Assembly (NCBI GenBank): GCA_903901225.1
Contig: CAIUQE010000006.1
Location: forward strand, 15,369 to 79,368
From: Candidatus Omnitrophota bacterium
Lineage (GTDB): Bacteria; Omnitrophota; Gorgyraeia; Zapsychrales; Fredricksoniimonadaceae
Direction: 5' to 3'
DNA length: 64,000 nt
Below the pieces are notes generated by a model. That model was not told where the DNA came from and made no database searches. It saw only the letters and a program-made list of their open reading frames with translations. Of this stretch, positions 1 through 43,400 are shown one piece after another. Each line of letters starts with the position of its first letter. Positions within the stretch are counted from its first letter, which is position 1. Both the position numbers and the translations under genes were made by a program.

Positions 1-650
1 AACCGGCCTGTCGTCGATCTTGACGCCGCCCGTTGTTTCAAGGCCTTTCGCATCCCTGCGCGACCCGTCCAGGCTTAACGCCTGATGGGCCTTGGCGGCA
101 TCCGAAGACTGGCTCGTCTCAACCCCGACCTTGACATCGGTATTGTCGATCTTTGTTGACCCTCCCAGGGTCAAAGCCCCCTCTTGCGTGCCCGCCGTTG
201 TCCGGGCTACGCTGGTCAATGCCTGGAGCGACGTTGTCTCGTTCACCTTCGTCGTTCCTCCCAGTGAAACCGTGCTCTGGGGGCCGGTACCAACCCCTCG
301 CGTCACGGCCGCCATCGCGTCGAGCGATGTCTTGTCATTGATCTGACCTTTACTGCCCAAAGCCACAGTCTGTGAAAGCTCACCTGTGCGCGCCTTCGCG
401 AGGGTGATATCCGTGCTGACAGCCAATTTGGGCGTAACATTTGCCGCAACACCCGCCCTGGTGGCCGTACCCGCGCTGCCCACGGTCTCCTCAAGTGTTC
501 CTTTGAGCTTGTTGGTCAGCTGGCGGTCAACACCGAGTGTTGTTGCCGTAGTTCCCGTCCCTGATACCTCGACCTGTTCCTTCAAGCGGATGTCCGTCTT
601 CTCGTTGAGGGCATATTGCGCCTCGGCCGCCGCCGTAGCGCTGTTGCTTT
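1..650 (-). repeat. Thr/Gly-rich ~33-aa tandem coding repeats at the C-terminal end of the giant protein (within the window)
   Basis: Translated units such as TSLDAMAAVTRGVGTGPQSTVSLGGTTKVNET / TSLQALTSVARTTAGTQEGALTLGGSTKIDNT recur consecutively. Confidence 0.5.
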
Positions 651-3600
651 GTTGCGTCGTGGCTGTCCCGTTACCCTTGGTCTGGGTACTCGCAAAAGCC
701 TCTGTCAACCTCAGGCGACGCGCGTCATGGACCAGCTGGACCAGGGTCGTTGTTGTCTCCTGCCCGCCCACCTGCATCGCGGTCTGCAAATTGCCGCTGG
801 TGATCAATCGCTGGACATCCCGGCTCGCGGTCAAGCGGGTGACGGGCGTCATGTCAAAGGTCATGGCCATCCCGTTCATGCTCTTGCCCTGCTGGGATGT
901 GGTCCCGCCCGTCGAGAAGCCATCCCCGATCCATTTGTAGTAACTCTTCAGGCCGACCCTGTCGAAGAGGCGCGCGTCCTGCGTGATCCCGTACGCTTTG
1001 CCGTTGCTGCCCGCGGCACCCGACAGGTCGCTGAATGTGATGCCGCCATCCGTCGATATAAAATTATTCTGGGCCGCGGCGACGGTTTCGGCATATTCGG
1101 CATGCACGGTAGAATCCTTGGCCAGGTGGACGGTCACATCCTCCCCGCCCAACTGGTACTTGCCCGCTGCCTGCGTTTCAGACACATACGTGGCCCCGGC
1201 CACGACATTCTTCCCCAAAGCCTTTGTCACGCGCGCTCCCTGGGTGCCCTCGGCCAGCTGGTCATGGACAAAATATTCATAATCCGCCACCACATACATC
1301 GGGTCCCCGCCGAGCAGGTTATTGGAGATCAGCTGGTTGTTATCAACGGACATGGACAAAGGGCGCCAGAAAAGGATACGCCCGTTGGAGGGGTCAATGG
1401 AATAATCAACGCCGCTCTTCATCTCCAAGGCCGATTTGACCAGCCCTGTGACCGCGTCCCTCACCTCGACCTTCACCTTGTCCGTGCCCTGCACAATATC
1501 ATTGTTCTTGAAATAATAGAGCGACCCGCCTGTGGCTAGGAATTCGTTATGCGCGGCGCGCTGATGGACTTCAGCGTGAAAGACCGCTATGCCGGTCTTC
1601 GCTTCACCGTAATCGGTCGTCGCCACACTCTTGTAATCCAGCTTCCCGCCATAAAGTGTCCGGGTATAATTCGCGAATTCCGTGTCGTTGAACGCCACCG
1701 CGTAATTACCCCAGATCGCCTGGGACTTGTCCCAATCAACAGAAAGATAGAGAGGCCCTTCCGTGTTCGCCGCGTCATAGTTCAGGGTTGAATTATCGCC
1801 GTAAACCGGATAATACGCATTATCCTTGAACGTGCGCAGGGCTGCCTTGGCCTGGCGCTCCGTGTCAAAACTCGACGTCACGATATATTTCCCCTGGATC
1901 TTGCCTTTAAGGTAATAAGCGATCTTGCCCTGGTCGTAGAACCCGCGGCGGTACTGGTCATTGCTCTGGACCGGTTCGATATGTCCGCGATCCATGTTAT
2001 ACCCGACCTTGCCGTCGCCCATAGCCACGAACATGAGGTAATCTTCCCCGACTTTCAGCGGTTTCCTGTAATGCGCCGTCTGCACCGGCGCCGCCTCAAT
2101 AACCTCAGGCGTTCCCGCCGTCATGGCACCTGCCTGTTCAGCCGGCCCCTGTTTTACCGCTCCCCCTCCCGCCGCGGCTTTAGGCCAGCCGCCCGGGCCC
2201 TTCTCCTGGGCCGTCACAACTTCAAGCTCATAATCCCCGTCAGGCAGGATGACCTCCATCGGTATCGCCTGTTCCTCGGTCTGCCCGGCCGCGAGGTCCT
2301 GCGCTGTCAATCCGTGATGCTCGGGCACGGGCACTTCCGCGAACACCTGGCCATTCCTGAGGACCACGACCTGCCGCACGTCGCTGCCAGCGGACTTGAG
2401 CGTGAGGGTATCCCCCTTGACCCAGATATTCCGGGTCTTCAAAGCGTCCCCTAGCGCGAGGGCGAGCAGGAAATCATGATATTTCTTCGTGCGGGCCGTT
2501 GCCTCGTCCTTCTTTTCCTGGGCGGAACGCTGGCGCTGGCGATCAGCCATGTCGGCGTCGGTCATCACCTTCAACACCAGCGGCTGTTCTTTGGTCTCAT
2601 CCCACTTTTCATGCTCACCCTGGACCTTAAGCACAAACGCGTAATGATGGCTCGCCAGAAGATACTGGCCGGCCGCGTCCCTCCCGTCCCAATAAACCGG
2701 ATCATTGATGTTAGACCGGGTCCCTTTGAACGAACGCACCAGCTTTTTGGTATCCGCGTCAACGACATCAAGCTGCCACGACACCAGGAACGGCGCGTAA
2801 TTGGTGAACAGCCTAAACTCGATCTGCTCGATCACAGTGTCGTTATGCAACAAAATGTTGTCATTGAACATATTAACGTTCAGCCTGGGTTTGGGCGCGG
2901 TCGTGCTTTGGTCGACCTTCAGTTCTTTCTGGAAGTACTCCGCGTCCTTCCCTACGATCTGAGCGTTGTCCACATTCACGCCGAAATTGACCTTGATGAT
3001 GCTGCCAGGCGTAACATCCACCACCTGGACCTTGTCCGTGGTCAAATATGCGCCCGGCGGCAAGGTCCGTTCATCAAGCCTCAACAGATGCCGGCCGGGC
3101 ACAAGCGCCGGGATGTGGAACTGCCCGTTCTCATCCGCCGTCACCACAGTGCCGTCTTCCATGGCAAGGCTGACATTGGGCACAGGCCCTTCGATGACCT
3201 TCTGTCGGTCTTCATAACTGTACTGCGGGTCATCCTGCCGGCCGTTCTCGTTCCAGTCATAGAACACCTTGCCGAACACGGTCCCCGCGTCAAAAAGCGG
3301 ATCAAGGACAATCTTGACAGTGGCGACGGTCTTGTTGGAGATAATCAGGCCCGTGGGATACTGCATGGTCGCCACGTTATCATAGGCTCCGGGCGCCACA
3401 CCGGCACCGATGACCAGCTGATAACGCACGATCTTCTTCTGCCCGGGCGTAAAATCGCCAGGGAGGAAGGTGAGCGGCCTGTTGCCCGTCGGATCGGGCA
3501 TGGGGACCCCATCCAGCAACGCGCGCCCGTTCATGTACTTGAACCCCGGCGGGATCACGTCGACAAACCTCGGAGCGATCACCGAATTGGTCTTGGAAAG

Positions 3601-6600
3601 GCATTCAATGCTGACCGTGTAGGTCACAACTTCGCCGATCCTGGCTTCCGTCTTGTTGGACTTTTTCTCGATCCTGAAAAGATACGGATTAGCATCCAGG
3701 GGCTGGTCCATCTGGTGGATGAGCCCATCCGTGATGAACACCTCACCGCGCGACCCCAGGAGAATCTTGCGGCCCGCCGGAAGCTTTTCATCAGAAAGGA
3801 TGGTTGGATAACTGTAACCCAGCGCCGTTATCACAATCTTATAGCTGGCATTCACTGTCAGGAAAGAATAAATGCCATCCGCTCCCGTTACCATCGGATT
3901 AGTATCCGTAAGCGCTATATCCGTCCCCTTCACCGCCATTGTCCCGTCCGCCTTTAACATCAACACCGATGCCCCCTTAAGCGGCTGGTTGGATGAGGAG
4001 TCGAACACGATACCGTAGACATCGTTCACGATGAATGTCTTGATCGCGCTGGAAACGCCGTCTACGATCACAGAAACATAATTGGAGCCGCGCGAAAGGT
4101 TCCTGGTCAACGCGAAGGAGAATGTCCCGTCCGCGGCAACAACCCCCTGCCCCATGTAAGCTTCCGGGGGCAATGACAAAAGATACAGATCAGCCTGGTC
4201 CTTGGCAACGACAAACACCTGGCTTCCCGGTTTGGCGTTGCCCTGGATCACGGGTTGGGATGTAACGATCGTCTGCTGGTCCACGGGAGAGGTGATCACC
4301 GGGACCTGGGCCGCTGTCGGCGCGACAACGACCGAAAAGGTCGAAGAATCTCCGGTAATGATCCCGTAATATGGCGTGATCGTGTTCGTCACCGGATGGT
4401 TCGGGTCAGAGTCAAGGGCAAACTTGGTCACCGTTCCCAGGGACGCGTCATCTTTCCCGACCACAACACGGAAATTCCCGTTCGTGTCAGCCTTGGCCGA
4501 AGCGATCACCGTGCCGGTACCGTCCTTGAGGGTCACATCATGCCCGGGGACTCCGTGGCCGATGATGGTCGGCACCGGGCCGACAACGGTGCCCGGGGCC
4601 GGGGTCACGATGTTCAGGGTGAAAAATATCCAGTGGATATTGGTCGGCGTAACTCCATTCTTGTTGTCCGTGGAATTCGTGGCAATGATATCCGTCGCCG
4701 GATTCACCGGAAAATTCGGGAACACGGCCGTTGAATCGCGCACGTCGACGAAACCTGCCAGCGGTGCCGCGTTAAGGATGGTCAGCGACCAGGATGTGGA
4801 ACCGCCTCCTGACGTGCTATCCGTCGTCGAACGGAGGATCAGCTTGTTTGCCGCGTTACCCGCCAGGTCCAGGGACCCCGTGATGGTCTGGTTGGATCCC
4901 TGCGCGAATTTGATGGTCTTGGCCCCCGATGATATCTGGGACGCGACGTCCTGGAACACCGTGTCACCGCTGACAGTGACCGTATTGTTCCCGCTGAAGG
5001 TGACCTTGCCGCTATTGTGGACAAAGCTTCCCGCTGTATGGGCAAACCCTCCCTGCACCGTGAAACTCTTGCCACTGCCCGGCGCCGTAAAATTACCGCC
5101 CGTCATCGCGAAATCGCCACGCAGGTCGATGGCCTTGGCTCCGGCGTTAAGCGTCGCGCCGGCCACGCCCAGGTTCCCGTAAATGGTCATGTCCACCGCA
5201 TTCACAAAAGTGGAAGGCGTCCCCGAAAGATTGTTCTCGATCACAAGATTGTAGAACAGGTTCGGGGCCGTAAGCGGGAAACTGCTCCCGATGACGCCAT
5301 TGCCGCGGTACACAAAAGTCCCCGAATAAATATCCGGATCAACAATATTAACGGCTTCGTCACCCTGAAGATAAATTGTGCCGTCGTTGGCAAAAGCTCC
5401 CGTCACGTCAAACTTATAACCATCCGCGTAAAGCCTGGCATCCACATCCAGCGTCATGTTGAGCAGGTTAATGTCATATTGTTCGGGATCCGGCGGCACA
5501 TGCGGCACCGTAAAATGCGGCACGTTCGTCACGCCGCCCGGTATCCGGACGCTGTCCGCGACCACCGCGCCATGCGCGTTCATCGGCACAAGCCCAAGGT
5601 CCCAGTTATTGGGCACGCGCCAGTCCGTGGAAAGGGCTCCAGTCCATGTGAACAGCGTCGACCCGAAAACCCAGTGCGTATTGTTGTACATCGCGGCGGC
5701 ATGAGGCGTGGAATCCCGCGCCACAAGCCAAAGACCTCCGCCGGCATTGGAATCCGTGACATCGACGTAGTTGATATGCTGAAGGCCTCCCGGCACCAGA
5801 GATATCCCCGCGGCATTGCTGCCCAGGTCCGATTTCAGGAAAAGTTCGTTGCCCGCGATCCCCTGCAGGGTCAACTCATTGGTGATCGTCTGTACCGCCG
5901 TATGGTCAAATATGAGCTGGTGGACTTGGATCCCCGCGGGGATCGTTTTGGTCAATTTATAAAATGTCGTGCTCCCGTTCAAAGCCTGCGCGGTCGCCCC
6001 CATGGTCGAGGTCGCATCCAACGCGACAGTCCCGTGATTCGCGTCAAATCCGGCACCGGCCGTATTGGTAAAATTCCCGGCGACGGCAAGCGTTTTTCCA
6101 CTGCCAGGCGCCAGGAACGAACCGCCGGTCATCACGAAATCATGCCCGATATCCAGGGCCGCGGCCGTTGCATCAAGCGATGAACCGCTAATGGTCAGCG
6201 TGCCGTAGATCGCCAGGTCCACATTCGCCGTGAACGCGGAGGCTGACCCCGTGAAAGGCGCATGGACAATAAGATTGTTGAACATCACAGGTCTCCCCCC
6301 GCCCGTGATGGTGAACGGCGCACCCGTCCCATCCCCGTGATACACAAAAGTCCCGTTGTAAATATCCGGGTCAGCGATATTCACCGCCTCACCGCCGTCA
6401 AGGTAGATCGACCCGTCATTGACGAACGTCCCCGACACCGTGAGGCCATGCCCGTCCAGATAAAGGCTCGCGTCAACCGCGTACAGGCCTAGGTCCACAA
6501 GGACAGGCGAGCCTGACCCCGCGGTCAGGTGCGGCTTGTCCGCCGTGCTCGGTATCTGAACACTGTCGCCGTTCCTCGGGACAAGGCCGAGGTCCCAGTT

Positions 6601-8640
6601 CGACGGCACATCCCACGCGGTATGCGACAGCGCGAGCGGGCTCGGTGTCCCATCCCAGACAAAGGTCGCCGCCCCGAATACCCAGTGCGGATAATTGCTG
6701 ATCCCGGCGGAAGACCCTCCCCCGACCAGCAACAGACCTCCGACAGCGCTGTTATCCTGCACCGACACATTATGGATATCCTGGACACCGCCCGTGGCCA
6801 GCAGCAGGAATGGCGCAGTGCCTGCCGACGAACTGACGATATCAAGCCGGTGGGTGCTGTCAATGCCGTTAAGGGTGAGCTTATCCGCCACCATATACGT
6901 GTACGGCGTGCCCGGGCCAACCCCGACCCCGAAGGTCAAAGTTTCAGGCCCCGTGGCCACGTTCTTCGTCAAGCCATAGAAGGCGATACTGCCGGTGACC
7001 GTCTGGTTGGAACCCACAGCCGGGTTTGCCAATACGACCGTCCCGTCATTGGGCGTGAACGTCCCCGCGGTACGCGTAAAATCCCCGGAAACCGTGAAAG
7101 CGTGAGAAGCATCCGGCGTTACGAAAGACCCTGCCGACAAAACAAAATCATGCAGGCTCAGATTCCCGGACTGGGCATCGACGGCCCCCCCGTTCATCGC
7201 GGTCCCATGCTCCACCGTGAGGGCCTTGCCGGAGGCCAGCAGGACGCTTCCAGCCGTGAATGTCGCGTCCGTGTATACGGTCAGATCGACCCCGATGGTG
7301 AATGTCCCGTGCGAACTCCTCGAAGAATCGTCGACGATCAGTGAATGATACCCGGCCAGCGGCGTTCCGGCGACCGTGAAATTCGTGGTGATATCAACAC
7401 CCGCGCCACTGGGCCTACCCAGATATTTGAAAACACCGGCGTCATTCAGGGCCGCGGTCACAACCGCTTCATTCCCGTCCAGATAAATGGCGCCGTCATT
7501 GACCAGGGCGGCGGACAGCGTGGCGTTATGCCCGTCGAGCGTCAGCGTGGTGCCGCTGCCGATGTTCAGCGTGCCGATAACAATATCGCCATCAAGAACA
7601 GGATCATACACAGTTCCGTCGACGATAAGGGCCGTATCCCCGTCCTCAGGCACCACGCCCAGGCTCCAGTTAAAGGCATTATCCCAGTGAATATCATAGC
7701 CACCCGTCCAGGTCTCCGTGATCGCGCCAAACTGCCAGTGCGTGTTATTGTACAGAAGATGGTCCGAATGGTCCAAAGAAGCGCGCCCCAGCAGCACCAT
7801 ACCGCCGGTGGCGTCATTGTTCCACACATTAACGTAGCGGATATCCTGGACCCCTCCCGTGGTAAGGATAAGCCCCGCGGCCGGATTGAGCACCGCCGGA
7901 ACCCCGGCGCTGTTATTCAGTGTCAACAAGTGTCCCGCGTCAAAACCGCGCAGGGTGAGGCTGTTGTCAACCCTCTGGGTCAGCCCCGGGGGGAAGACCA
8001 GTGTGCGCGCGGTCGTGGTCGGCATGACTTTCCTCAACGCGTAGAACGTTGTGCCGCCGAGGATCTGCTGGTCAGCCCCGTCAAGGATGACCCTGTTATT
8101 ACCATGAACATAAGACAAGGGCAACGCGGGAGAAACATTGTTCCACGTCCCTGTCACGTTCATGGGCATCCCGTTCGCCTCAAAGATCCCGGCGAGATTG
8201 TTAAAATCCCCCCGGATATAGATCCCGGCGTCAACGGCCGGAATGATGAGCCCCAGGCGCGCGGTCGATTCATGGGTCAAGTTATAGAACGTATCTGTCA
8301 CAAGCTTCCCGGCATAAATGGTCTGCAAGCCGGCCGCGGCGGAAAAGACCACCGTCCCTGTGCCAGAGTCATAATAACCGGAACCATAAATGGCCCAGTC
8401 ACCGTTGAGACGGATCTTCCCCGTGGTGGTTTTGATGACCCCGCGGTTGGTCACCAGACCGGGATGACCGTTGGCCGTTTCAACTTTCAAAGTACCTGTA
8501 TTAACGTTCAGGCGGGAATTGGCAGGGACAGTAACACCGGCCGCCCAGGCGGCATAACACGTCAAGAATACCGCGCACGCGGCAAAAACCGCGATCTTGA
8601 CGCTCTCGAAGAGCTTGTGCAAAGACTCACGCGCCGACAT
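1..8640 (-). CDS. Giant secreted repeat-containing surface protein (adhesin/S-layer-like), C-terminus truncated by window edge
   Basis: Manual minus-strand translation from ATG at 8640 is open for >2880 codons down to position 1; it is absent from the ORF track because no stop falls in the window. N-terminal signal peptide (MSARESLHKLFESVKIAVFAACAVFLTCYAAWAAG). Four tandem ~340-aa units ending in NNTHWQFG / NYPHWVFG / MYNNTHWVFG / TNIHWIFF with beta-helix-like NxxG/T-rich repeats. These are followed by Ig-like domains, a conserved-repeat-domain-like segment (TYTVSIECLS), a Cna-B/SdrD-B-like segment (GKVFYDWNENGRQDD), a CarbopepD-reg-like segment (GIVFDSSSNQPLKGASV), a beta-strand-rich region and Thr/Gly-rich short tandem repeats. 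Confidence 0.85.
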   Translation of the reverse strand, partial: MSARESLHKLFESVKIAVFAACAVFLTCYAAWAAGVTVPANSRLNVNTGTLKVETANGHPGLVTNRGVIKTTTGKIRLNGDWAIYGSGYYDSGTGTVVFSAAAGLQTIYAGKLVTDTFYNLTHESTARLGLIIPAVDAGIYIRGDFNNLAGIFEANGMPMNVTGTWNNVSPALPLSYVHGNNRVILDGADQQILGGTTFYALRKVMPTTTARTLVFPPGLTQRVDNSLTLRGFDAGHLLTLNNSAGVPAVLNPAAGLILTTGGVQDIRYVNVWNNDATGGMVLLGRASLDHSDHLLYNNTHWQFGAITETWTGGYDIHWDNAFNWSLGVVPEDGDTALIVDGTVYDPVLDGDIVIGTLNIGSGTTLTLDGHNATLSAALVNDGAIYLDGNEAVVTAALNDAGVFKYLGRPSGAGVDITTNFTVAGTPLAGYHSLIVDDSSRSSHGTFTIGVDLTVYTDATFTAGSVLLASGKALTVEHGTAMNGGAVDAQSGNLSLHDFVLSAGSFVTPDASHAFTVSGDFTRTAGTFTPNDGTVVLANPAVGSNQTVTGSIAFYGLTKNVATGPETLTFGVGVGPGTPYTYMVADKLTLNGIDSTHRLDIVSSSAGTAPFLLLATGGVQDIHNVSVQDNSAVGGLLLVGGGSSAGISNYPHWVFGAATFVWDGTPSPLALSHTAWDVPSNWDLGLVPRNGDSVQIPSTADKPHLTAGSGSPVLVDLGLYAVDASLYLDGHGLTVSGTFVNDGSIYLDGGEAVNIADPDIYNGTFVYHGDGTGAPFTITGGGRPVMFNNLIVHAPFTGSASAFTANVDLAIYGTLTISGSSLDATAAALDIGHDFVMTGGSFLAPGSGKTLAVAGNFTNTAGAGFDANHGTVALDATSTMGATAQALNGSTTFYKLTKTIPAGIQVHQLIFDHTAVQTITNELTLQGIAGNELFLKSDLGSNAAGISLVPGGLQHINYVDVTDSNAGGGLWLVARDSTPHAAAMYNNTHWVFGSTLFTWTGALSTDWRVPNNWDLGLVPMNAHGAVVADSVRIPGGVTNVPHFTVPHVPPDPEQYDINLLNMTLDVDARLYADGYKFDVTGAFANDGTIYLQGDEAVNIVDPDIYSGTFVYRGNGVIGSSFPLTAPNLFYNLVIENNLSGTPSTFVNAVDMTIYGNLGVAGATLNAGAKAIDLRGDFAMTGGNFTAPGSGKSFTVQGGFAHTAGSFVHNSGKVTFSGNNTVTVSGDTVFQDVASQISSGAKTIKFAQGSNQTITGSLDLAGNAANKLILRSTTDSTSGGGSTSWSLTILNAAPLAGFVDVRDSTAVFPNFPVNPATDIIATNSTDNKNGVTPTNIHWIFFTLNIVTPAPGTVVGPVPTIIGHGVPGHDVTLKDGTGTVIASAKADTNGNFRVVVGKDDASLGTVTKFALDSDPNHPVTNTITPYYGIITGDSSTFSVVVAPTAAQVPVITSPVDQQTIVTSQPVIQGNAKPGSQVFVVAKDQADLYLLSLPPEAYMGQGVVAADGTFSFALTRNLSRGSNYVSVIVDGVSSAIKTFIVNDVYGIVFDSSSNQPLKGASVLMLKADGTMAVKGTDIALTDTNPMVTGADGIYSFLTVNASYKIVITALGYSYPTILSDEKLPAGRKILLGSRGEVFITDGLIHQMDQPLDANPYLFRIEKKSNKTEARIGEVVTYTVSIECLSKTNSVIAPRFVDVIPPGFKYMNGRALLDGVPMPDPTGNRPLTFLPGDFTPGQKKIVRYQLVIGAGVAPGAYDNVATMQYPTGLIISNKTVATVKIVLDPLFDAGTVFGKVFYDWNENGRQDDPQYSYEDRQKVIEGPVPNVSLAMEDGTVVTADENGQFHIPALVPGRHLLRLDERTLPPGAYLTTDKVQVVDVTPGSIIKVNFGVNVDNAQIVGKDAEYFQKELKVDQSTTAPKPRLNVNMFNDNILLHNDTVIEQIEFRLFTNYAPFLVSWQLDVVDADTKKLVRSFKGTRSNINDPVYWDGRDAAGQYLLASHHYAFVLKVQGEHEKWDETKEQPLVLKVMTDADMADRQRQRSAQEKKDEATARTKKYHDFLLALALGDALKTRNIWVKGDTLTLKSAGSDVRQVVVLRNGQVFAEVPVPEHHGLTAQDLAAGQTEEQAIPMEVILPDGDYELEVVTAQEKGPGGWPKAAAGGGAVKQGPAEQAGAMTAGTPEVIEAAPVQTAHYRKPLKVGEDYLMFVAMGDGKVGYNMDRGHIEPVQSNDQYRRGFYDQGKIAYYLKGKIQGKYIVTSSFDTERQAKAALRTFKDNAYYPVYGDNSTLNYDAANTEGPLYLSVDWDKSQAIWGNYAVAFNDTEFANYTRTLYGGKLDYKSVATTDYGEAKTGIAVFHAEVHQRAAHNEFLATGGSLYYFKNNDIVQGTDKVKVEVRDAVTGLVKSALEMKSGVDYSIDPSNGRILFWRPLSMSVDNNQLISNNLLGGDPMYVVADYEYFVHDQLAEGTQGARVTKALGKNVVAGATYVSETQAAGKYQLGGEDVTVHLAKDSTVHAEYAETVAAAQNNFISTDGGITFSDLSGAAGSNGKAYGITQDARLFDRVGLKSYYKWIGDGFSTGGTTSQQGKSMNGMAMTFDMTPVTRLTASRDVQRLITSGNLQTAMQVGGQETTTTLVQLVHDARRLRLTEAFASTQTKGNGTATTQQSNSATAAAEAQYALNEKTDIRLKEQVEVSGTGTTATTLGVDRQLTNKLKGTLEETVGSAGTATRAGVAANVTPKLAVSTDITLAKARTGELSQTVALGSKGQINDKTSLDAMAAVTRGVGTGPQSTVSLGGTTKVNETTSLQALTSVARTTAGTQEGALTLGGSTKIDNTDVKVGVETSQSSDAAKAHQALSLDGSRRDAKGLETTGGVKIDDRPV
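4640..8535 (-). repeat. Four tandem ~1 kb coding repeats (~340 aa each) inside the giant protein gene
   Basis: Repeat units delimited by recurring ...GGVQDI(R/H)xV.V.DN.A.GG..LLV....NTHW.FG...W.G....W....NW.LG.VP..GD motifs. Approximate unit ends at nt 7725, 6702, 5691 and 4640. Confidence 0.55.
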
Positions 8641-8763
8641 CAAGTATTAATATTCATATTCAGTGTTTGATAGATATTTTAACTTATTTCATCATATTAA
8701 ATAGAAAATACGATTAAATCCATTTTTAAAATATTTTAATATTAAAAGAAAAGTGAGGATCGA
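8641..8763 (-). promoter_or_regulatory. AT-rich intergenic promoter region upstream of the giant protein gene
   Basis: About 75% AT in a ~60% GC genome (tattaatattcatattcagtgtttgatagatattttaacttatttcatcatattaaatag...). It lies immediately 5' of the ATG at 8640. Confidence 0.4.
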
Positions 8764-9952: not shown

Positions 9953-12139
9953 ATGTCGATTAGAATGTCACTTCCTATGAATTTCGCGGACACCTTATCC
10001 AAATATAATTTTCCCGAGGAATACAAACAAGCCCTTCTCGCCACGGGGATCGTGACGCTCCATCCCCCGCAGGCCGCCGCCATTGACGCTGGCGTCCTGG
10101 AAGGGAAGAACGTCGTCCTGGCCGTACCCACGGCTTCGGGAAAAACCCTGATCGCGGAACTGGCCATGCTCAAGGCCATCTTTGAAAAGAACGGCCGCTG
10201 CCTCTACATCGCGCCGCTGAAAGCTTTGGCCAGCGAAAAATACCGGGAGTTCCAGAAAAAATACGCGCCCCTGGGCATCAAGGTCGGGATCGCCATCGGC
10301 GACCTTGACTCGCCCAGCGCCTATCTGAAGAATTACCAGATCGTGATCGCGACCGCCGAAAAAGTGGACTCGCTCCTGCGCGCGCGCTCCGACTGGTTCA
10401 TCAATGACCTGGCGGTCACGGTGTTCGACGAGATCCATGTCATCAACGACCCCTCCCGCGGCCCGACGCTCGAGATCCTCGCCACCCGCATCCGCCTGCT
10501 GAACCCGGCGATGCAGGTGCTGGCTTTGTCGGCAACGGTGGCCAACGCCAAAGACATGGCGGACTGGCTCGGAGCCGGAGCTGTCGTCAGCTCATGGCGG
10601 CCCATTCCCCTGCACGAAGGCGTTTACTACAACGGCCGGCTGACCTATGAGAACGGCAACATCCGCGTGATCAAGGAAGATGCCCCGGAAGAGGTCCAGC
10701 AGCTGGTGATGGACACCCTGCGCGGCAAAGGGCAGGCGCTGGTCTTCGTCAATTCACGGCGCTCAACGCAGGCGGTGGCCCGCGAACTTTGCCGCTGGGT
10801 GGGGACACTTCTGACACCGGAAGAGCGGGAGACGCTCAAAGATGTCGCCGCGCGCGTCGCACCACCGCTGGAAAGCACCAAGGTCTGTCAAAAACTCGCG
10901 GAGGTCGTGATCCATGGCGTCGCCTTCCACCACGCGGGCCTGCGTCCCGACCAGCGGGAAGCGGTCGAGGAGAATTTCAAAAAGAATATCATCAAGGTGA
11001 TCTGCTGCACACCCACGCTGGCCGCCGGGGTCAACCTGCCGGCCCGGCGCGCGATCATCCGCGACGCCAAACGCTACGCCTCGGGCGTGGGGTCTGTTTT
11101 CATCCCGGCTTCCGAATACAAGCAATGTGCCGGCCGCGCGGGGCGTCCCCAGTACGATGACTACGGCGAAGCCGTACTGCTCGCGAAATCCCTTTCCGAC
11201 CAGGACGCTTTGTTCGAGCGCTTTATCCTCGCGCCCCCCGAGCCCGTGATGTCCCAGCTGGCCAATGAGCACCAGCTGCGCAAACACGTCCTTGCCTCGA
11301 TCGCGGGAGGCTATGTCAATGATGTCAACGGGATGTTCGAATTCCTCAGCCACACCTTCCTTGCGCATCAGCACAAGGGCGCGAATCTGGTCGAACTTGT
11401 GGGCAACATCTTTGACTTCCTGCACAAAGAACAGTTCATCGACAAGAGCGGCTTCCGTTTTTTTGCCACGCCTTTCGGCGCGCGGGTCAGCCGCCTTTAC
11501 ATCGACCCTCTCTCGGCGCTGGTCATCCGCAAAGGCCTGGCGCGGATCGCCTCAGGCGCGAATTTTTCGTCGATCGGGATATTGCACCTGATCTGCTCCT
11601 GCCCCGACAGTGAAAAACTTTCCGTGGGCAAGACCGACCTGGAAGACCTCGAGGATTTCGGCAACAAGGTCGTTGACGAACTGGCGCTGTCGCCAGAGGA
11701 TATTGAAGCCACGCAGGACCACTACACCGCGCTGGGCGTCCTCAAGACCGTCTGGCTTTTATTGCGCTGGATGGATGAAGAAAAAGAGGAAGATATCTGC
11801 GAACGCTTCAATGTGGGCCCCGGTGATGTTTTCCGCCACACGGAATCGGCCCAGTGGCTGCTCTACGCCGCCCAGTCCATTGCCGAGGTCTACCAGTTCA
11901 AGCAACTGACCCATTTTCTCAACGGGCTCCAGAGCCGCGTGCGTTACGGGATCAAGGAAGAGCTCCTGGAACTGGCGAACCTGCGGGGCATCGGCCGCAT
12001 CCGCAGCCGCATCCTTTTCAACAAGGGCTACAAAACCATCGCCGCGCTCGGGAAACTCTCCGCCGAAGACCTGGGCCACATCAAAGGCATCGGGCTGGCT
12101 TTGGCCAAAGACATCCTGAAACAAACCGCCTCACGATGA
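9953..12139 (+). CDS. Hel308/Ski2-like superfamily-2 DNA helicase with C-terminal helix-hairpin-helix domain
   Basis: 728 aa. Q-motif and Walker A (AVPTASGKT), DEIH box, SAT motif ([10 protein letters not shown]), and C-terminal HhH ([46 protein letters not shown]). The size and domain order match archaeal Hel308/Hjm. Confidence 0.8.
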
Positions 12140-15100
12140 CGTTCCCGTCCCCGCGCCAAAGCCCATAAAATTCCGAACATCACTCACCGGCTGAACATTG
12201 ATGATCAGCGGCAGGATACCCTGGACGTCCTGGTCCAGCGCCTTGACCTGCGCCGGAGAAAGGTCGAACCTGAATGCCCCCGCGTCACCCTGGACATCCA
12301 TCCCCGCGGCCTGGTCCGTGAGGTCGATACCGCCGTCGATCTCGGCTTTAGTGGACTGACTGCGGTCCTTGCCATTCCGATGCGACACCGGTTTGTTCTT
12401 AGGACGACTCTTATAATTATTCCCCTTAGCCACCCCATTACGGCCATCTGGTTTCATTACAAGAAGGGGTTTACTTAAAGCAACCGTTGTTTTCATGTTG
12501 TTTATTTTTTGATCCTCTTGTTTACCTGCAAAGCTGGCCTCGTAGAATCTGCGAGCTGTACGCCCATTTTTCTCCATGAACTTCTCAGCCTCCTGTCCCG
12601 ATAAAGGCATCAAATACACCACATCGCCATATCGCGCACCGGACACAGCGCTCGCCTCTTGCTGGGCAAGGAACAACGCATAACGTGCCTCGCCATAACG
12701 GGAAAAAAGTACCATAAAATGCCTGAATCGCGGGTCTGACTTTTCACGCATATCTTTGACCCACTTTCGCGTAGCAACCTTCGCCTGAGAGTTGCCATTT
12801 AAAAATTCTTCAAAGGGGATTTTATTTACCTTACAAAAAGACGCCATGGCATCCCTGGCACTATCCCTTTTGCCAACAGCCTTTTGAACATTTATTACAG
12901 TTATCTTTTTGACCGAAATGCGTTCTTCCGCAGAAAGCAAAGACAATTCGATTATTCTTTTATAAGTTTCATACGTTCTTGGCCCTCCCACATTCCATGA
13001 AGCTCCCCACGTGATAATTAAGATCCGTTCTGGTGACAATTGAGGATATTCTTTACATAACTGCACAAATGATGCCACCATTGATCTGCGTGACGCAAGC
13101 CGGGTCTTTATCTTGGCTGGCATGGTCACCTGTCCTCGCAACATATCAAACGAACGGGAGTAATAATCATCGGCGGGAACATAGGGCTCCCTGGCAAAGA
13201 TATCATCCATGAACGTTAGTTGAAAGATCAACTGCAACTTGGTATCATTCATCCCCATTTTAAACGCTTTCGGAACAAGCCAATGATCCTTATCTGCCAT
13301 ATATCCCATGGCTTTCGACAGGGCAACAACATGTTTATATTCACGCTCATAACCCGCCCCTCTTAAACGCTCCAGCACTGGTATCGCGATCTTGAACATC
13401 TGTTGGGCTGTTGTGGGTTGGATCTGCAAATATCCGATGGTCGACGAGCGCTCCTTGGCATCCCGAAGGGACTGATTATTCCCGAAACCACTTTCAATGC
13501 CCGACTCCCCGATCCATATCTGGAACAAAACCCTGGAGGATATGCCCGCGGCCTTGAAATTCGGCGCCAGATCATCGTAATACCGCTGGAACATTTTTGC
13601 CATGTCATCGTACGTCGCATTTGGTTTTCCCATCATTTTGATCAGGATTTCCTGGGCGGTGTATTTCTTCGTGGGACGGCCACTCCTGCCATCTTCCAAT
13701 ATCTTGAAATTCTTTGCCACATTCTGAAGCATTTCCTTAACATCCTGCCCGGTCAACTTTTTTTCCTTCTGTTCCACAACGGCAATATGTTTCGGGATCG
13801 CCAGCTTCTCAATCACAAATTTACCGCCGACCGCCATCGCCACGGCCAACGACAACCCCAACAATATCTTTCCACCTGAAGAAGATTTATTCTCAATCCC
13901 GGATTTTATGGCCCTGGCCAATGTCGTGACAAGTTTAACAGCCACCTCCTTAAAACTCCCCTGGGCATTGTCGGGTGAACCATCCTTGACATCCATCGAA
14001 GCATCCATATCTTCCGCCACAAACCCGCCGGAGAAATATTTGCGCGGGATAAGTTCCTGGGAATAAGTATCGAGCTCTTCCTTGATCAGGCTGTAAGCGC
14101 CTTTCCGGAACGCCTCAACGTACCTGTCATAGATCTGCCGGTTCTCTTCCCGCGGATGCGCGATCTCATTGCCCTGCGTCTTGTGCCGGTCGATGAACAC
14201 CTGCGCGAACACATTGGCGTCCGTCCCTTGTATTCCCGTCACAAGCCCGGCACTGGCCATCAATTTCCTCTTGAGCCAGGCCGAAAGGACGAGCGCGTGA
14301 ACGATCTGGCGAAGCATGGCAAAATTCGCGCCTTCATTGACCTCTTTCTCCAGCACCGGTAACACAATCTCGCGCAGGACCCCTTTGGCCAGGAGGACGG
14401 CACTATTGTCAGGTACACCAGCTGCGGGCACAAGCGCATTGGCCTGCGCCGCTGTAACATCCCCGGCAGGAGCCGGGGATTCCGCCATGCCCCTCTGATG
14501 GGACATGGCTACATAGTCAGATTCCAGCATGACCTTGAGCTCAACCTTATCCACGAACGCGGATATCTGCTTGCCATCGGGGCCCAGCATCTCGTGGACC
14601 AGCGAACGGCCGGGCATGATCCAGACCTTGTTGAACGTATCGACCGGGATATCGGTGGTGCCATAAGCCTCGTAGGCGCGGCGGTACACTTCCTTCCAGA
14701 ACACCTTGCCCGTCTCACCGTCAGGATGAAGGAGCGATGCGGTCAACTGCTTGAGGATATAATCCTGGGCCAGCAGGTCGCGCCCCATGGCCGTGCGCCC
14801 GAGGTCCTCCTGGACAATCCGCTGGCTTTCATACGGTGACAGGTTGACCCACAGGTCCTTGTTCGGGATCGTCAGCGACACCAGAAAATATTTGATGAGC
14901 CGCATCGAGACATCATTGAATTCCTGTTGTGCCAGCGCCGCGCGGCCTTCATCGAACAGGAAATCCATGCGCAAAGGGTCACTCGCGTCCACGCGCATCC
15001 CCCGCAGGAGGCACGGCGCGCTCGCGGGGCTGAGCGCCACCATCTGCCCCGCGGGCGGAAGGACAAGCCCCTGGGCCATGGCCGCGGGCACGACCCCGGT

Positions 15101-15148
15101 CACGATGAACGCCAGACAGACAATGGACGCAACCATACGCCTTATCAT
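12131..15148 (-). CDS. Modular envelope protein: signal-peptide-like N-terminus, conserved ~350-aa N-module, hydrophobic segment, SLT lytic-transglycosylase-like domain, conserved C-terminal GGIDL module (paralog A)
   Basis: 1005 aa. N-terminal [25 protein letters not shown]. The N-module ([30 protein letters not shown]..., [19 protein letters not shown]) is shared with the ORFs at 22371-25583 and 25764-28748. The SLT signature is [15 protein letters not shown]...[11 protein letters not shown]. The C-terminus GGIDLTDQ...[21 protein letters not shown] is shared with the two paralogs. Confidence 0.8.
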
Positions 15149-21970: not shown

Positions 21971-22243
21971 TTATTTGATCTTCTGTTTCATCTCAAGACC
22001 GGGTTTGAACACGACCACGCGCCGGGGCGGGACCGGGACACTGGCGCCGGTGCGGGGATTACGGCCAAAACGCGCGCGGCGTTCCTTGATCTTGAAAACC
22101 CCGAAATTACGTAACTCTACCTTCTCGTTACGGTTCAGGCTCTCGACAATGACATCGAACGTTTTCTGGACGATCTTTTTCACGTCGACCTGCTTGATGC
22201 CGGTCATGTCCGTGATCTTGAGAACAATATCCTTTTTCGTCAT
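21971..22243 (-). CDS. hup: HU/IHF family nucleoid-associated DNA-binding protein
   Basis: 90 aa from MTKKDIVLKI. Conserved arm RNPRTG and FKPG motifs. The track ORF has 14 extra upstream codons. Confidence 0.85.
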   Translation of the reverse strand: MTKKDIVLKITDMTGIKQVDVKKIVQKTFDVIVESLNRNEKVELRNFGVFKIKERRARFGRNPRTGASVPVPPRRVVVFKPGLEMKQKIK

Positions 22244-22370
22244 AAGGCAAAACCTCCTCAAATTTTGTAACCATCGTACCAACAAGGCTTTAGAAAGTCA
22301 ACTATTATAAAAGACACCTGATCAGTAACGCTTCGGCAAAGATTTCGTGATCTAAAAACTCTATCAACTT

Positions 22371-25300
22371 TTACTTAACCATCAGAAATCCTTGCAAATC
22401 AACCAAAGGAACACTCGAAACAAGGACCGGCTCAAGTCCAAAAAGCCTTTCCTGAAAAACCGTGACTACGGCATCATTGACCTCAAACGACACCGCGCCG
22501 CTCGCGGCATCAACATGCAGATCGATCTTTTGAAGGTCAATACCGCCATAACTCTCCGCATTATCCTGACCCTGCTCAACTTTCGTGAATGTGACCGTCG
22601 AAGATTGACTGCCAAGACTCTGTCCCCATGCTTCATCGCCATGAGCTACAAAAATCTGTTTGAGACGACTTACCCCTTGAGGAATAACCAACGCCACTTC
22701 GACCTTATTATTCACAACATTCACTGTTTTCTTGATCCTGGGATTATCGTCTGGATTTTCATCGTCCACCAGCAAACCTACCAACACTTTTTGGGCACCA
22801 TATACCGTTAATGATACCCTGATCTTTTGACCAGCTACAACAGGAATGCCCTTGTTCATATCCAGATCAAGATAGGAAGATTTCCAATTACTCCCCGAGG
22901 CTAACCCAGGATCCCTCCCACTCAACAGATCCTGATCGCTCACATTGCCGCCCTTTGTTGGCACGGCCAACAACCGATCACTCGCAGGTGTTTCTTGCAC
23001 TGTTCCTATGTCGCCTTGTGTGACAACTTGGGTGACAACAGAATATTCTTTCCCCAGAACCGCATTGTTAATAAAATCAGCTGCCCCCTTCGTATCAATA
23101 CCAATGGCGTCATAAGCAGCTCCGTAATTCTCACCCGTAAACGGATTAACGCGCAGAATAGGATAGAGGACCCAAGAACCAATCGTGCTGCCGCGTACAA
23201 CACCAGAAGGAAACGGTGTCTTCCATCCGTGACCGGTTTGAATGCCGGCTTCAGTGGCATAATAAGCGATCAACCCATCCCCATTCTGAAGTTTTCCAAA
23301 CGCGCTTTTAGCTTGTTTTAAAAGTTCTTCCGCGACGCCCTTATATAATTTAGCCGTTGACTCATCACCTGATGCCGCACAACGAATGGCAGCTTTCTGT
23401 ACTGCCATGATGACACCGCCTGTCCACTCCACGGTTCCCAGCGGATGAACACCTCCCCGTTGGGACGTCGCGAACGAAGAAAGAGGATCCGTAAAATCCA
23501 CCAGGGTTATGGTTTTCACTTCGCCACCCGGGATTGGAGCCGTCACACGCACTAGCGACTTGTTGAGCAACTTGTTGATCTCAGCCTTGAGTTGCGGTAG
23601 CGGCAACTCGTCTCCTACCCGACCCAATAAGGTCCAGGAATATGCATCCGTGGCGAAACTGCCCGGTGAATCATTGGCGCCGCGCAAAATAACGCCGGTT
23701 GAAGGGTTATAAAGATTATTGTAAAAATACGTTTTCCCCTTATCCGCCGCTTGCTTCCATTTTGGATCGCCATACGCTTTGTACAACGCGTAAAATAATG
23801 CCACGGCATCCATGTGCGGTTCCGTAATCACAAGCCCCGGACTCCGATCACCGTCCGTTACACCTCCCTCCGCATTCTGAAGCGACAAAAGAAGATCGCC
23901 CATGGCCAGCGCTAATGGCTGATATTTCTTCGCATCAACGTTCAAGGCCGACAAACCGATCCAGGCGTTGGGTCCCGGTGTCACCTGATACTCAAGCCCC
24001 GCCATACCTGTATTAATATTGACACCATTCATGAATCCCACTAATCCGTTGATGGGCTTGGCAAGGTTAGGATTAGACAAGCCGTTCATAAAGAAATCCA
24101 TAACTGTCCTGGCATAAGCGTCTTCTCCGGCATACTTGAAAGCACCCGCCTCAACGGCCAGATCATACGCATAAGCAATATTCTCCAATTGCGGCATGCC
24201 GACATGGCTCGGAATAAGCCTGGTATTCGGATCTTCCAGTGATTCCATTGCCCGGATAGCTTGCTTATTAAAATCACCCGCATTAACATCCTTCGCTACC
24301 TGCGTACAGCCCGAGGAAGTCAAAAAGACAGAAAGAACAACTAAAAATGAGATTTTCCGTACAAAACCAATACCGGCATCCAGTAACTTCTTCTGAAAAG
24401 CCCGTGTACCCGTTAATGTTGAAATGCCGGGTCCGATGGGAGAAGCATCAATAGTTTCAATGACCAATCCTGTATCAGGTGCCTTGACTGACTGCTTCCC
24501 GTCGATTTCTAGTTTGGGATGGATCGCCATACCGCCGGCAAAATACTTGCGGGGGATCGCCTCGCCAGTATACTGGTCTTTATCTTCCCGGATATAGTTG
24601 TAAACTCCCCGCTTGAAAGCTTCGACATAATTGTTATAAATATTTTCAACAGCCGCCGGATCACCATGCAACACACCTTCGATCTTGTTCTGGTCGGCAT
24701 AAGCACGTGCCAGCAGAGAATCCTTCAACCTTGTTTTGTACCATGTGGCCAGAATAAGCGCCCGATGGATCTGTCGCAGCGGTGCAAACTGGGCGCCTTC
24801 ATTCACTTCTTTCCTGATGACTGGAAGGATCGTCTGGCGCATGGTCTCGCGGGACATTTCCTGCGCTGGAGTACTGCCAGTGGATTGGCCATTCGCCTCC
24901 ATGAGCGCATGGTCACTGTCCAGCATGACATCCAATGAATCTTCCGTAATATAGACAGCACCGCCGTTCTCATAGACCTTGGCTTTCTTTGAAACGATCC
25001 ACACTTTGCTGAAAACATCCGTAGGAATATCAGTTGTACCAAAAAGATCGTACGCCCTTTCATAAACATTTTTCCAGAACACCTTACCCGTTTCGCCTTC
25101 CGGATATATCAAGGAAGATGAAACCTGCTTGAGAATATAGTCCTGCGATAATAACTCGCGGCCCATTTGCGTCCGCCCAAAATCCGGCATAACAATACGA
25201 TCATGCTCCAGAGGAGAAAGATTGACCCACATTTCATTCTCAGGGGTCGTCAGCGCCGCAAAAAAATACCGCACCAGATGATCGACCTCTTCTTGGCCAA

Positions 25301-25535
25301 CCACTTTGGACTCTCCAGGAGACAAAAGAAATTGGAAACGGAAAGGCTCTTTAGGATCGACCTTGAGACCCTGCAAACTTGCCGGGGTCATCGGCTGACT
25401 TAGTCCAACCATATTACCTGGCTCAGGCATCGGCGTCACTTGGGCCGCCCACTGGGCAAAGCCGGCCCCGGCAGTATTCAAAAGGAACGCGCACGCCACC
25501 AGCATGCTCACAATTTTCTTAAACAACTTGCCCAT
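22371..25535 (-). CDS. Modular envelope protein: signal peptide, conserved N-module, hydrophobic segment, (alpha/alpha)6 glycoside-hydrolase-like domain, beta-sandwich region, conserved C-terminal GGIDL module (paralog B)
   Basis: About 1054 aa from MGKLFKKIVSMLVACAFLLNTAGAGFA; the track ORF extends to 25583. N-module WVNLSPLEHDRIV...MGRELLSQDYILKQ...NEGAQFAPLRQ...PRKYFAGG. Central GH-like region with ITEPHMD and SFATDAYSW, reminiscent of GH8-like toroid folds (low certainty). C-terminus GGIDLQKIDL...GLEPVLVSSVPLVDLQGFLM. GC content is lower than the flanking genes. Confidence 0.78.
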   Translation of the reverse strand: MGKLFKKIVSMLVACAFLLNTAGAGFAQWAAQVTPMPEPGNMVGLSQPMTPASLQGLKVDPKEPFRFQFLLSPGESKVVGQEEVDHLVRYFFAALTTPENEMWVNLSPLEHDRIVMPDFGRTQMGRELLSQDYILKQVSSSLIYPEGETGKVFWKNVYERAYDLFGTTDIPTDVFSKVWIVSKKAKVYENGGAVYITEDSLDVMLDSDHALMEANGQSTGSTPAQEMSRETMRQTILPVIRKEVNEGAQFAPLRQIHRALILATWYKTRLKDSLLARAYADQNKIEGVLHGDPAAVENIYNNYVEAFKRGVYNYIREDKDQYTGEAIPRKYFAGGMAIHPKLEIDGKQSVKAPDTGLVIETIDASPIGPGISTLTGTRAFQKKLLDAGIGFVRKISFLVVLSVFLTSSGCTQVAKDVNAGDFNKQAIRAMESLEDPNTRLIPSHVGMPQLENIAYAYDLAVEAGAFKYAGEDAYARTVMDFFMNGLSNPNLAKPINGLVGFMNGVNINTGMAGLEYQVTPGPNAWIGLSALNVDAKKYQPLALAMGDLLLSLQNAEGGVTDGDRSPGLVITEPHMDAVALFYALYKAYGDPKWKQAADKGKTYFYNNLYNPSTGVILRGANDSPGSFATDAYSWTLLGRVGDELPLPQLKAEINKLLNKSLVRVTAPIPGGEVKTITLVDFTDPLSSFATSQRGGVHPLGTVEWTGGVIMAVQKAAIRCAASGDESTAKLYKGVAEELLKQAKSAFGKLQNGDGLIAYYATEAGIQTGHGWKTPFPSGVVRGSTIGSWVLYPILRVNPFTGENYGAAYDAIGIDTKGAADFINNAVLGKEYSVVTQVVTQGDIGTVQETPASDRLLAVPTKGGNVSDQDLLSGRDPGLASGSNWKSSYLDLDMNKGIPVVAGQKIRVSLTVYGAQKVLVGLLVDDENPDDNPRIKKTVNVVNNKVEVALVIPQGVSRLKQIFVAHGDEAWGQSLGSQSSTVTFTKVEQGQDNAESYGGIDLQKIDLHVDAASGAVSFEVNDAVVTVFQERLFGLEPVLVSSVPLVDLQGFLMVK

Positions 25536-25763
25536 AGGAACCTCTCTTTGATAGCTTGACGTCACCAGTGCAAAGTATGCCACATATACCTTACTGCACG
25601 CAACTTTTTCAAAAAAGCTGAATGAAAGCTGAATTGACTCAAAAAAATAATTCCCATGGAAAATGGCCTCGTGAACTTTTTATACCCGCCTTATAAATCT
25701 ATTGCCGCAATGATCACATCCCGTTTTTTATGAAAAATCAAATTAAGTTCTCAGCTAGCATCT

Positions 25764-28748: not shown

Positions 28749-28938
28749 GATTCCTCGTTACTTAATAGTAAGTGCTATTTTCTGCCGTTCAACTGTGAAT
28801 AAAGACCACAACCCACCTTTATAAGTATGTACTCTATATACAAGAAAACAAGATGCCAGCGCCCAAACCGGGAAAACGCTTTCTTGCCTGCAGATTTAAC
28901 GAATATTTGGAGGATGCCCTTGAACCAGGGCGCTTAAA

Positions 28939-29028
28939 CCCGGATTTTTCATTAGAAAAATCCGCCCCGTGAATTCACCTGCTCCAAATCGTTTTGAGAA
29001 GGTGAATTCAGGTCGCGTGGCAAATCCG
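28939..29028. repeat. Left terminal inverted repeat of the cassette
   Basis: Reverse complement matches 30558-30647 with only a few mismatches or indels. Confidence 0.75.
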
Positions 29029-29163
29029 ACGAGGATTTGCCAGCTTTGCGAGGTAATCCTGGACTTTTGCCTGTCCTGGGCTGACGCACCCGACAGGCCA
29101 GGGCACGCACTTTTTAGTGCACAGTATTCTCGACGCTATTTTGAGAAGCGTGCAAAATCCGGG

Positions 29164-30420: not shown

Positions 30421-30557
30421 ACTTTAGGCTACATCGACGAAGATGTCAATGGAATCATGGACAATCTATACACTACTGAATAGATTGTCCACAACACGCC
30501 TGCCATCCGAACCAGGCATTGCGCTTTCAAATCCGCCAACAACGAAGGCTGTTAATC

Positions 30558-30647
30558 CCGGATTTTTGCCACGCGACCTGAATTCACCTTCTCAAAACGA
30601 TTTAGAGCAGGTGAATTCACGGGGCGGATTTTTCTAATGAAAAATCA
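30558..30647. repeat. Right terminal inverted repeat of the cassette
   Basis: See the left TIR. It ends 17 nt before the dnaE stop codon. Confidence 0.75.
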
Positions 30648-30663
30648 GGGTCAATATCTTTTC

Positions 30664-42778: not shown

Positions 42779-43400
42779 GAATAAGCTCCCCTTTTTTTGT
42801 GTCCATGGAAAAAATAAAATTCTCCAGGAACGTCATCCCCAACAAGCCGTCAGCGAGCTTGAGGTTGTCCTGGTCAAGGACAATGGCCTTGACATTATGG
42901 ACCTTTGCTTCTCCGACAGCAACTTCGCTGATATCGACCGCGCGTCCGCGCACATAACCACCCCCGGCGAGCATCACCGGCACCACCTGAGCGCCCGAGG
43001 TCTTCAACTTCAGTTTCTTTGACATGGCCCGCGACACCTGCATGGCGCTCGCCCCTGTATCAAGGAGCAATCGCGCCGGGACCTTGCCGTTGAACGTGAC
43101 ACGCACATAAAAACTCGTTCCCTCGCGTTCCAGCGGGACCACAAGGCGCCCCCCCGACAACGTCACCCTTGAAGTCTTATGACGGGGCGACTCCCGCGAT
43201 AAATTTTTATTGGTCTGATTCGCGGTCTGCCCGGCCATGGACGTCCCCGTGTAAACCACGCCGCCGACGGCTTTCGCGGCGGTCCAACCCGCCTTGCCGA
43301 CAACCCCGACAGCCTCTCCGCCGGCCTCAAGAAGAGTGCACCCGCAGCCAAAAGCCACAAGACCACACAAAAATATTAAATACCCTGCTCTCATATTCAA
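42762..43400 (-). CDS. Retropepsin-like aspartic protease lipoprotein
   Basis: Lipobox (FGCGC) and an LLDTGAS active-site motif of clan AA aspartyl proteases. Confidence 0.7.
   Translation of the reverse strand: MNMRAGYLIFLCGLVAFGCGCTLLEAGGEAVGVVGKAGWTAAKAVGGVVYTGTSMAGQTANQTNKNLSRESPRHKTSRVTLSGGRLVVPLEREGTSFYVRVTFNGKVPARLLLDTGASAMQVSRAMSKKLKLKTSGAQVVPVMLAGGGYVRGRAVDISEVAVGEAKVHNVKAIVLDQDNLKLADGLLGMTFLENFIFSMDTKKGELILEKRK

Follow-up and report, generated by a model that had tools for sequence, protein, structure and literature searches.

Three genes in a 64,000-nucleotide stretch of a Candidatus Omnitrophota genome (GenBank assembly GCA_903901225.1, contig CAIUQE010000006.1, positions 15,369 to 79,368; this whole stretch is called the window below) encode proteins, here paralogs A, B and C, that end in a common module of ~60 amino acids (aa). 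The module is the fixed tail of a large, undescribed family of exported Omnitrophota proteins built from a conserved head, a variable cargo and the tail. No description of the motifs or the family was found in the literature searched, which included main Omnitrophota genomics papers. We propose, with a probability of about 40%, that head and tail form one constant scaffold, of which the module makes up the C-terminal half, and that the module acts within its own protein.

The C-terminal module and its distribution

Paralogs A, B and C are the minus-strand open reading frames (ORFs) at 12131-15148 (1005 aa), 22371-25583 (1070 aa counted from the GTG at 25583) and 25764-28748 (994 aa), respectively. 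The true start of paralog B is likely the ATG at 25535 (MGKLFKK…) rather than this GTG. The C-terminal ~60 aa of each protein start with GGID[LM] and finish with G[LI]xP[VL][IL]xxxxP, and the pattern GGID…G[LF]xP[VI]Ixx[IV]xP was found within ~50 aa of the stop in all three. A six-frame scan of the 64 kb located GGI[DN][LMFIV] at exactly 3 sites, each 57-67 residues ahead of a stop codon.

The module of paralog A (12134-12352, minus strand, aa ~933-1005) begins with GGIDL and belongs to a divergent type 2. That of paralog B (22374-22568, minus strand, aa ~1006-1070; GGIDLQKIDL…FGLEPVLVSSVPLVDLQGFLMVK) is the most divergent of the three, and its close relatives are the database proteins P0001 and P0002. 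The module of paralog C (25767-25958, minus strand, aa ~931-994; GGIDMSQANLDLQIKRDGDGVPLPVNQQNFDRIHISGLVPVILAIK) is of the canonical type 1 (NLDLQIKRDGxGVPLPxSQQNLxxIxIxGLVPVILxIxP). Type 2, to which A and B belong, reads GGIDLTPANMNLQTQNxxGEIKFHxDPAMLxQLQNAPGFVPVIINIQP and is itself a widespread variant.

Pairwise similarity was strong for A and B (E=1e-8 with a search space of 90x90; 61 aa aligned at 31% identity), but weak for A and C (E 0.03) and for B and C (E 0.01). At the level of the family, a profile hidden Markov model (HMM) was used. Built only from non-window members of type 1 and scored against all 1,128 window ORFs, it detected paralog C with an E value of 2.5e-26 and paralog A with 2e-6, whereas paralog B was not significant (E 1.3). 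A B-type profile compared with an independent family profile in hhalign aligned end to end over 60 columns, with 94.4% probability and an E value of 9.5e-8. Judged by sequence, the three modules are homologous; pairwise support is strong for A and B alone, and these family-level statistics settle the matter. Hence, the common module noted in the initial annotation stands with slightly refined coordinates, its similarity is significant, and in paralog C it does come after the last transmembrane (TM) helices.

An exhaustive search of 1.84 billion cluster representatives with the module HMM, a search that had been suggested for other proteins ending in the module, returned thousands of relatives: 4,964 representatives matched at E<=1e-3 and 1,851 at E<=1e-10. 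A word-indexed search had yielded fragments only. The position of the module was scanned in 157 sequences, namely the three window paralogs and 154 proteins from the database, and it lay 0-52 aa from the C-terminus; this range also held for the 150 best-scoring representatives inspected. Homologues from public sources were all named 'hypothetical protein', with no precomputed Pfam domain on the conserved N-terminal unit (N-unit) described below. Many of the public gene calls are short fragments that start from an internal Met, some of them on long contigs, which inflates the apparent number of small 'module-only' and 'N-unit-only' proteins.

The family is restricted to Omnitrophota. When one genome was scanned for each GTDB species, 336 stretches were confirmed, of which 80 were listed with locus-level results. 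Nearly all of these 80 loci come from metagenome-assembled genomes of Candidatus Omnitrophota/Omnitrophica, and a few are labelled Planctomycetales, Elusimicrobia or Desulfobacteraceae. Copies per assembly reached at least 10 among the listed loci. DnaE, GuaA, GuaB, GroEL, UvrB and other proteins of the window share 80-96% identity and synteny with the Omnitrophota loci L073, L052, L051, L017 and L043, and paralog C is also present verbatim on a metagenome contig. A phage origin of the module was rejected, since a scan of a viral contig collection contained no relative.

Conserved head and variable cargo

The initial annotation had suggested that the module could be a tag on otherwise different proteins. 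This did not hold, because the N-terminal ~380 aa of A, B and C, together with a signal peptide, are also conserved, with 39-45% mutual identity (E 1e-83 to 1e-100; paralog A against B and C, 39-41%, E 1e-83 to 1e-88). Signal peptide and N-unit occupy 13889-15148 in paralog A (aa 1-~420, ending in …PRKYFSGG, a linker and a strand), 24312-25535 in paralog B (from the ATG at 25535) and 27549-28748 in paralog C (aa 1-~400), all on the minus strand. The N-unit signature WVNLSPYE…EKEVNEG…PRKYF(S/A)GG was found in all three proteins, and the N-unit in 1,252 database proteins at E<=1e-10.

Head and tail occur together. Both parts are present in 72 ORFs of the 80 genome loci, and ORFs with one part only are cut by a contig end or frameshifted, save one module-only ORF of 81 aa (L002, 2631-2873). 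The N-unit was found in 70 of the 157 scanned module sequences, including nearly all of those of at least 600 aa. None of the database proteins with the module and without the N-unit begins with a signal peptide, and these module-only proteins look like 5'-truncated gene calls. A signal-peptide-like N-terminus was present in all 50 of the 50 full-length locus members examined. No clearly complete gene with the module but without signal peptide and N-unit was found in the 80 loci or among the database proteins. The minimal member, P0168, is a protein of 474 aa that consists of the N-unit, a ~70-aa linker and the module.

A giant minus-strand ORF at 1-8646, for which the initial annotation had asked whether the module was present, encodes at least 2,882 aa and runs past the window start. 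It has a signal-peptide-like N-terminus followed by repetitive β-rich sequence, with no family N-unit and no GGID module in its visible part. An exact-match scan of metagenome contigs for a continuation to its C-terminus found nothing. Since its N-terminus lacks the N-unit, the giant ORF probably does not carry the module.

Between head and tail, the length of the middle region ranges from ~70 aa in P0168 to >3,500 aa in P0133. Pfam searches of the middle regions of 46 members recognised almost nothing, the main exception being a family 2 glycosyltransferase (GT2) in paralog C. The cargo of paralog A (12353-13888, minus strand) opens on a hydrophobic helix (aa 428-446, about 13811-13867), and no significant family or PDB match was obtained for it. 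The cargo of paralog B (22569-24311, minus strand) starts with a signal-peptide/lipobox-like segment at aa ~403-421 (about 24321-24377), and no significant match was obtained, in PDB or elsewhere; the glycoside hydrolase CelA (GH8) appeared at E 0.34 only. The cargo of paralog C (25959-27548, minus strand) contains the GT2 at aa 546-840, which is PgaC/NodC-like and followed by C-terminal TM helices. It scored 49.2 bits against PF00535, above the gathering cut-off of 23.3; the match to TIGR03937 PgaC_IcaA had an E value of 4e-24, yet was far under the equivalog cut-off. This GT2 is the only clear enzyme domain among the 46 members scanned.

Segments resembling signal peptides or lipoboxes at the cargo start were seen in paralog B (…FLTSSGC), P0017 (…FVTGC) and P0229 (…PAIAQ). 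They lie right after the N-unit, as though entire genes of exported proteins, each with its own export signal, had been taken up in frame as cargo. In a protein that already starts with a signal peptide, such a segment poses a topological paradox. A crude hydropathy scan of 57 members counted no TM helix in the middle region of 38, one in 16, two in 2 and four in 1. Since the number varies, it places no constraint on topology, and an argument based on TM parity was dropped.

A possible two-piece scaffold and its alternatives

The proposal of a scaffold draws on the coupling of head and tail and on structure predictions. P0168 was modelled by AlphaFold2 from a 145-sequence alignment with a mean predicted local distance difference test score (pLDDT) of 79.2 and a predicted template modelling score of 0.80, and its module reached a pLDDT of 73-93. 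The predicted module contains three strands (412-414, 421-426 and 449-457) and no helix. In the full-length model of paralog C (61 sequences), the mean pLDDT was 53.9, with 70-91 in the N-unit (over aa 30-330). The final strand of the module, G[LF]xPVIxxI, is 9-10 residues long (449-457 in P0168, 975-984 in paralog C), and in the model of paralog C the module has no further strand. The sole candidate partner of equal length is the strand that follows PRKYFSGG and a disordered linker, at 372-380 in P0168 and 369-378 in paralog C. Since this is the only equally long partner, we infer that the last β-strand of the module pairs with the strand closing the N-unit, and the cargo would then be a giant insertion in a two-piece scaffold.

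The protein would be built in the order of a Sec-type signal peptide, the ~380-aa N-unit ending in …PRKYF(S/A)GG, a short disordered linker, a helix and a β-strand, the cargo, and the module. The tail strand would join the closing strand of the N-unit, so that the cargo protrudes from the scaffold. It is the scaffold, as the constant part, that would be exported, anchored or recognised at the envelope, and the fast-turnover cargo would provide variable functions, probably at the surface of host-dependent or predatory nanobacteria. The scaffold may thus serve in export, display or anchoring.

Several observations weigh against this model. The module has a pLDDT of just 45-68 in the full-length model of paralog C, and the strand pairing was deduced solely from DSSP strand inventories and confidence values. 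Covariation between N-unit and module, measured as mutual information with average product correction over 111 pairs, did not exceed the shuffled null, and Foldseek searches of PDB and BFVD for folds related to the scaffold gave nothing significant. The GT2 of paralog C is expected in the cytoplasm, yet the protein begins with a signal peptide. Between N-unit and cargo, a hydrophobic helix that resembles a signal peptide is present in A, in B and in several further members. Where one middle helix spans the membrane, head and tail would lie on opposite membrane sides, which conflicts with a clasp of the two strands in those members.

By its position and context the module is similar to the known terminal sorting domains, but it is homologous to none of them. 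Pfam and NCBIfam gave nothing on the C-termini or the common N-terminal region of A, B and C, and isolated or canonical modules remained empty even at E<=10. PDB sequence searches with module and whole-family profiles yielded nothing significant, and PADLOC had no match on A, B and C. Hence, the motif corresponds to no known domain in Pfam, NCBIfam or PDB, and the initial statement that it fits no known sorting or secretion tag was borne out, with no Pfam or NCBIfam match at E<=10 for the C-terminal domain (CTD) of the type IX secretion system (T9SS), PEP-CTERM, LPXTG or dockerin.

The individual systems were rejected as follows. The T9SS CTD (Por_Secre_tail / TIGR04183) had no profile match on A, B, C or canonical modules at this threshold. 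PEP-CTERM/exosortase, GlyGly-CTERM and LPXTG signals had no NCBIfam match, and the hydropathy scan showed no terminal TM helix; the tail that follows the module is short, either polar or rich in Ala/Ser, and contains neither a TM helix nor an Arg/Lys cluster. For dockerin (PF00404) there was no Pfam match, and no DxNxDG repeats were visible. Substrates of type I secretion (RTX) were set aside because A, B and C as well as the 50 full-length members have Sec-type signal peptides, which such substrates lack, and no RTX Pfam match was found. An autotransporter of type V secretion ends in a C-terminal β-barrel of at least 250 aa, whereas the module has ~60 aa and three predicted strands, and no Pfam match was obtained.

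A close parallel to the family's general design is the T9SS cargo of Bacteroidota, in which a Sec signal peptide and a conserved extreme C-terminal domain are likewise found on many variable exported proteins. Both are phylum-restricted, and both have a small-residue motif just upstream of the terminal domain as a possible cleavage site. However, the CTD is a 7-strand Ig-like sandwich rather than a ~60-aa module with three predicted strands, and T9SS cargo lacks the ~380-aa N-unit that accompanies the Omnitrophota module in every complete gene assessable. Rhs/CDI toxins, chlamydial Pmp proteins and PE/PPE proteins are similar in being multicopy families of fast turnover with constant regions around variable ones, lower GC content and island-like occurrence. 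The variable part of Rhs/CDI proteins is the C-terminal tip, whereas the Omnitrophota family is constant at both ends and varies in the middle; no toxin/immunity signature was seen and no sequence relationship to these polymorphic families was found. Split scaffolds with domain insertions resemble the proposed architecture in that the β-strands of head and tail are predicted to lie side by side, the cargo being inserted as a loop. They differ in that the Omnitrophota insertions are diverse and reach thousands of residues, some with signal-peptide-like or TM segments, and the pairing here is a putative one.

The giant Omnitrophota surface proteins ('Archaeovorins' and dockerin-type; bioRxiv 10.1101/2023.11.21.568195, 10.64898/2026.06.07.730766) share with the family the phylum, a signal peptide, TM/soluble mosaics, mostly unannotated sequence and a proposed surface or prey-interaction role. 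The N-unit and C-terminal module are not described in either of these two reports, and the family members, mostly of 0.6-2.5 thousand aa, are scattered among housekeeping genes and not located beside loci like those of type II secretion (T2SS).

As an alternative to the scaffold, the module may be a sorting or secretion signal recognised in trans, by which an Omnitrophota machinery exports or attaches the protein, with the module perhaps removed at D-x-A-(M/E/K), in the way that the T9SS CTD is removed by PorU. We consider this possible, if somewhat doubtful. The extreme C-terminal place of the module and its conservation over thousands of proteins in one phylum would be expected of such a signal, as would a small-residue motif just ahead of it: of 281 modules, 42% have D-x-A-x at 1-8 residues before GGID, and 14% have D-x-A-M. 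Of all 4-mers in the variable regions, DAAM is also by far the most over-represented (59 observed, 0.83 expected, 71-fold), and in P0168, the one minimal member modelled, D-x-A-M falls in a linker predicted to be disordered, as cleavage sites often are. Owing to this location it looks like a processing site, and D-x-A-M may be such a site or a linker motif. Large Omnitrophota surface proteins, moreover, have been reported in association with T2SS/Tad-like loci and peptidase domains (bioRxiv 10.1101/2023.11.21.568195). On the other hand, the spacing between motif and GGID varies, the window paralogs lack the Met form (paralog B has DNAE at aa ~1038-1041 and paralog C has DGAK at aa ~931-934), and the tails after the module vary over their 0-52 aa. 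Portable tags are found on proteins of different build, unlike the module, for which no complete protein without the N-unit was found. No conserved neighbour gene that may encode a factor was seen either, since clustering of the non-family ORFs from the 80 loci and the window gave generic signalling proteins and local synteny only. Thus, of the initial suggestion of a tag for a dedicated factor, the conserved extreme C-terminal domain stood, whereas portability and a candidate factor conserved beside the family genes did not.

Less probable is that the module is an autonomous interaction domain, independent of the N-unit, that serves oligomerisation (e.g., as a COMM-like strand-swapped dimer) or binding to the envelope or a prey surface; we regard this as unlikely. 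It is small and strand-rich with conserved hydrophobic strands, but with three strands of 3, 6 and 9 residues and with its long loops it looks unlikely to fold alone. The COMM domain (PF07258), a C-terminal dimerisation domain of ~70 aa, shows a weak local resemblance in a strand-turn-strand-helix stretch, and matched 12 of 98 type-2 modules at E<=0.1 (best E 0.0027). All matches were under the cut-off (best score 18.9 bits, gathering score 22.4), A, B and C had none, and the unrelated Aconitase_2_N recurred as often. A reverse search of PDB sequences, among which COMMD chains are expected, with the module profile gave nothing at E<=10 and hence no support. COMM identity was therefore rejected as recurrent (e.g., P0285 and P0286) yet sub-threshold and without reciprocal support; to our knowledge, COMM domains are essentially eukaryotic. 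Two COMMD1_N-like repeats were observed in P0040 at aa 580-636 and 868-924, inside the cargo and not adjoining the module. Finally, the conserved ends may be DNA homology arms for cargo exchange by recombination or gene conversion, the protein conservation being a by-product. Tandem arrays, variable slots and frameshifted copies do point to high turnover. However, the DNA of A, B and C is only ~67% identical in the N-unit core (over ~280 nt), and what is conserved at about 50% divergence are amino-acid patterns. Since the paralogs have no detectable DNA similarity at the module, homology arms are disfavoured in the window, and we find this explanation highly improbable.

Gene turnover and the biology of Omnitrophota

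Gain and loss of family genes between relatives was evident from the genome comparison. Close relatives carry family genes in different intergenic slots of one conserved housekeeping backbone, which runs …UvrB – Asp-protease – ThiI-like – UPF0489 – [slot 1] – CoaX – GroEL – [slot 2] – GuaB – GuaA – DnaE – [slot 3] – HU-like – HisRS…. The window has in slot 3, between DnaE and an HU/IHF-like gene (21971-22243), an 8.4-kb low-GC island (22293-30670) with paralogs B and C and an AAA14/DUF4143 gene (29164-30420). In L073, which lacks the island, DnaE directly abuts the HU-like gene. Same-strand tandem arrays are common: L007, L023 and L028 each have three consecutive family genes, and in the window B comes after C. 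In 61 of 73 loci the GC content of the family genes is below that of the flanks, the mean difference being 3.6 points; the window genes have 47.7% against 56.3%, and paralog C has 41.7%.

Some family genes of other Omnitrophota genomes are split into two or three consecutive ORFs by frameshifts or pseudogenisation (L051 4864-7206; L044, L045, L054 and L079), as would be expected if copies arise and decay rapidly, or if the assemblies contain errors. The AAA14/DUF4143 ATPase gene of the island matches the PADLOC candidate defence family PDC-S01 (E 6e-84). A gene for a retropepsin-like aspartyl protease (Asp_protease_2; 42762-43400, minus strand) belongs to the housekeeping backbone.

Omnitrophota are widespread, mostly uncultured nanobacteria with a presumed lifestyle of dependence on other microbes or predation of them, and most of their large surface proteins are unannotated. 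With its thousands of members, multiple copies, turnover between close relatives and a cargo that is nearly all unknown, the family is a natural candidate for a variable interface with hosts or prey. The N-unit and module together might form an unrecognised Omnitrophota carrier that exports and displays changing cargo for contact with hosts or prey, or releases it after cleavage at D-x-A-M, although we think this rather unlikely. If true, the family would be a secretion or display architecture of a new kind, and would give access to the main variable surface repertoire in a phylum that is uncultured. With both constant parts defined, gene calls that are mere fragments are no longer taken for proteins of their own, and two profile models could label several percent of the Omnitrophota coding sequence that is now 'hypothetical'. 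The head, the tail and the D-x-A-M linkers are concrete targets for studies of localisation and processing.

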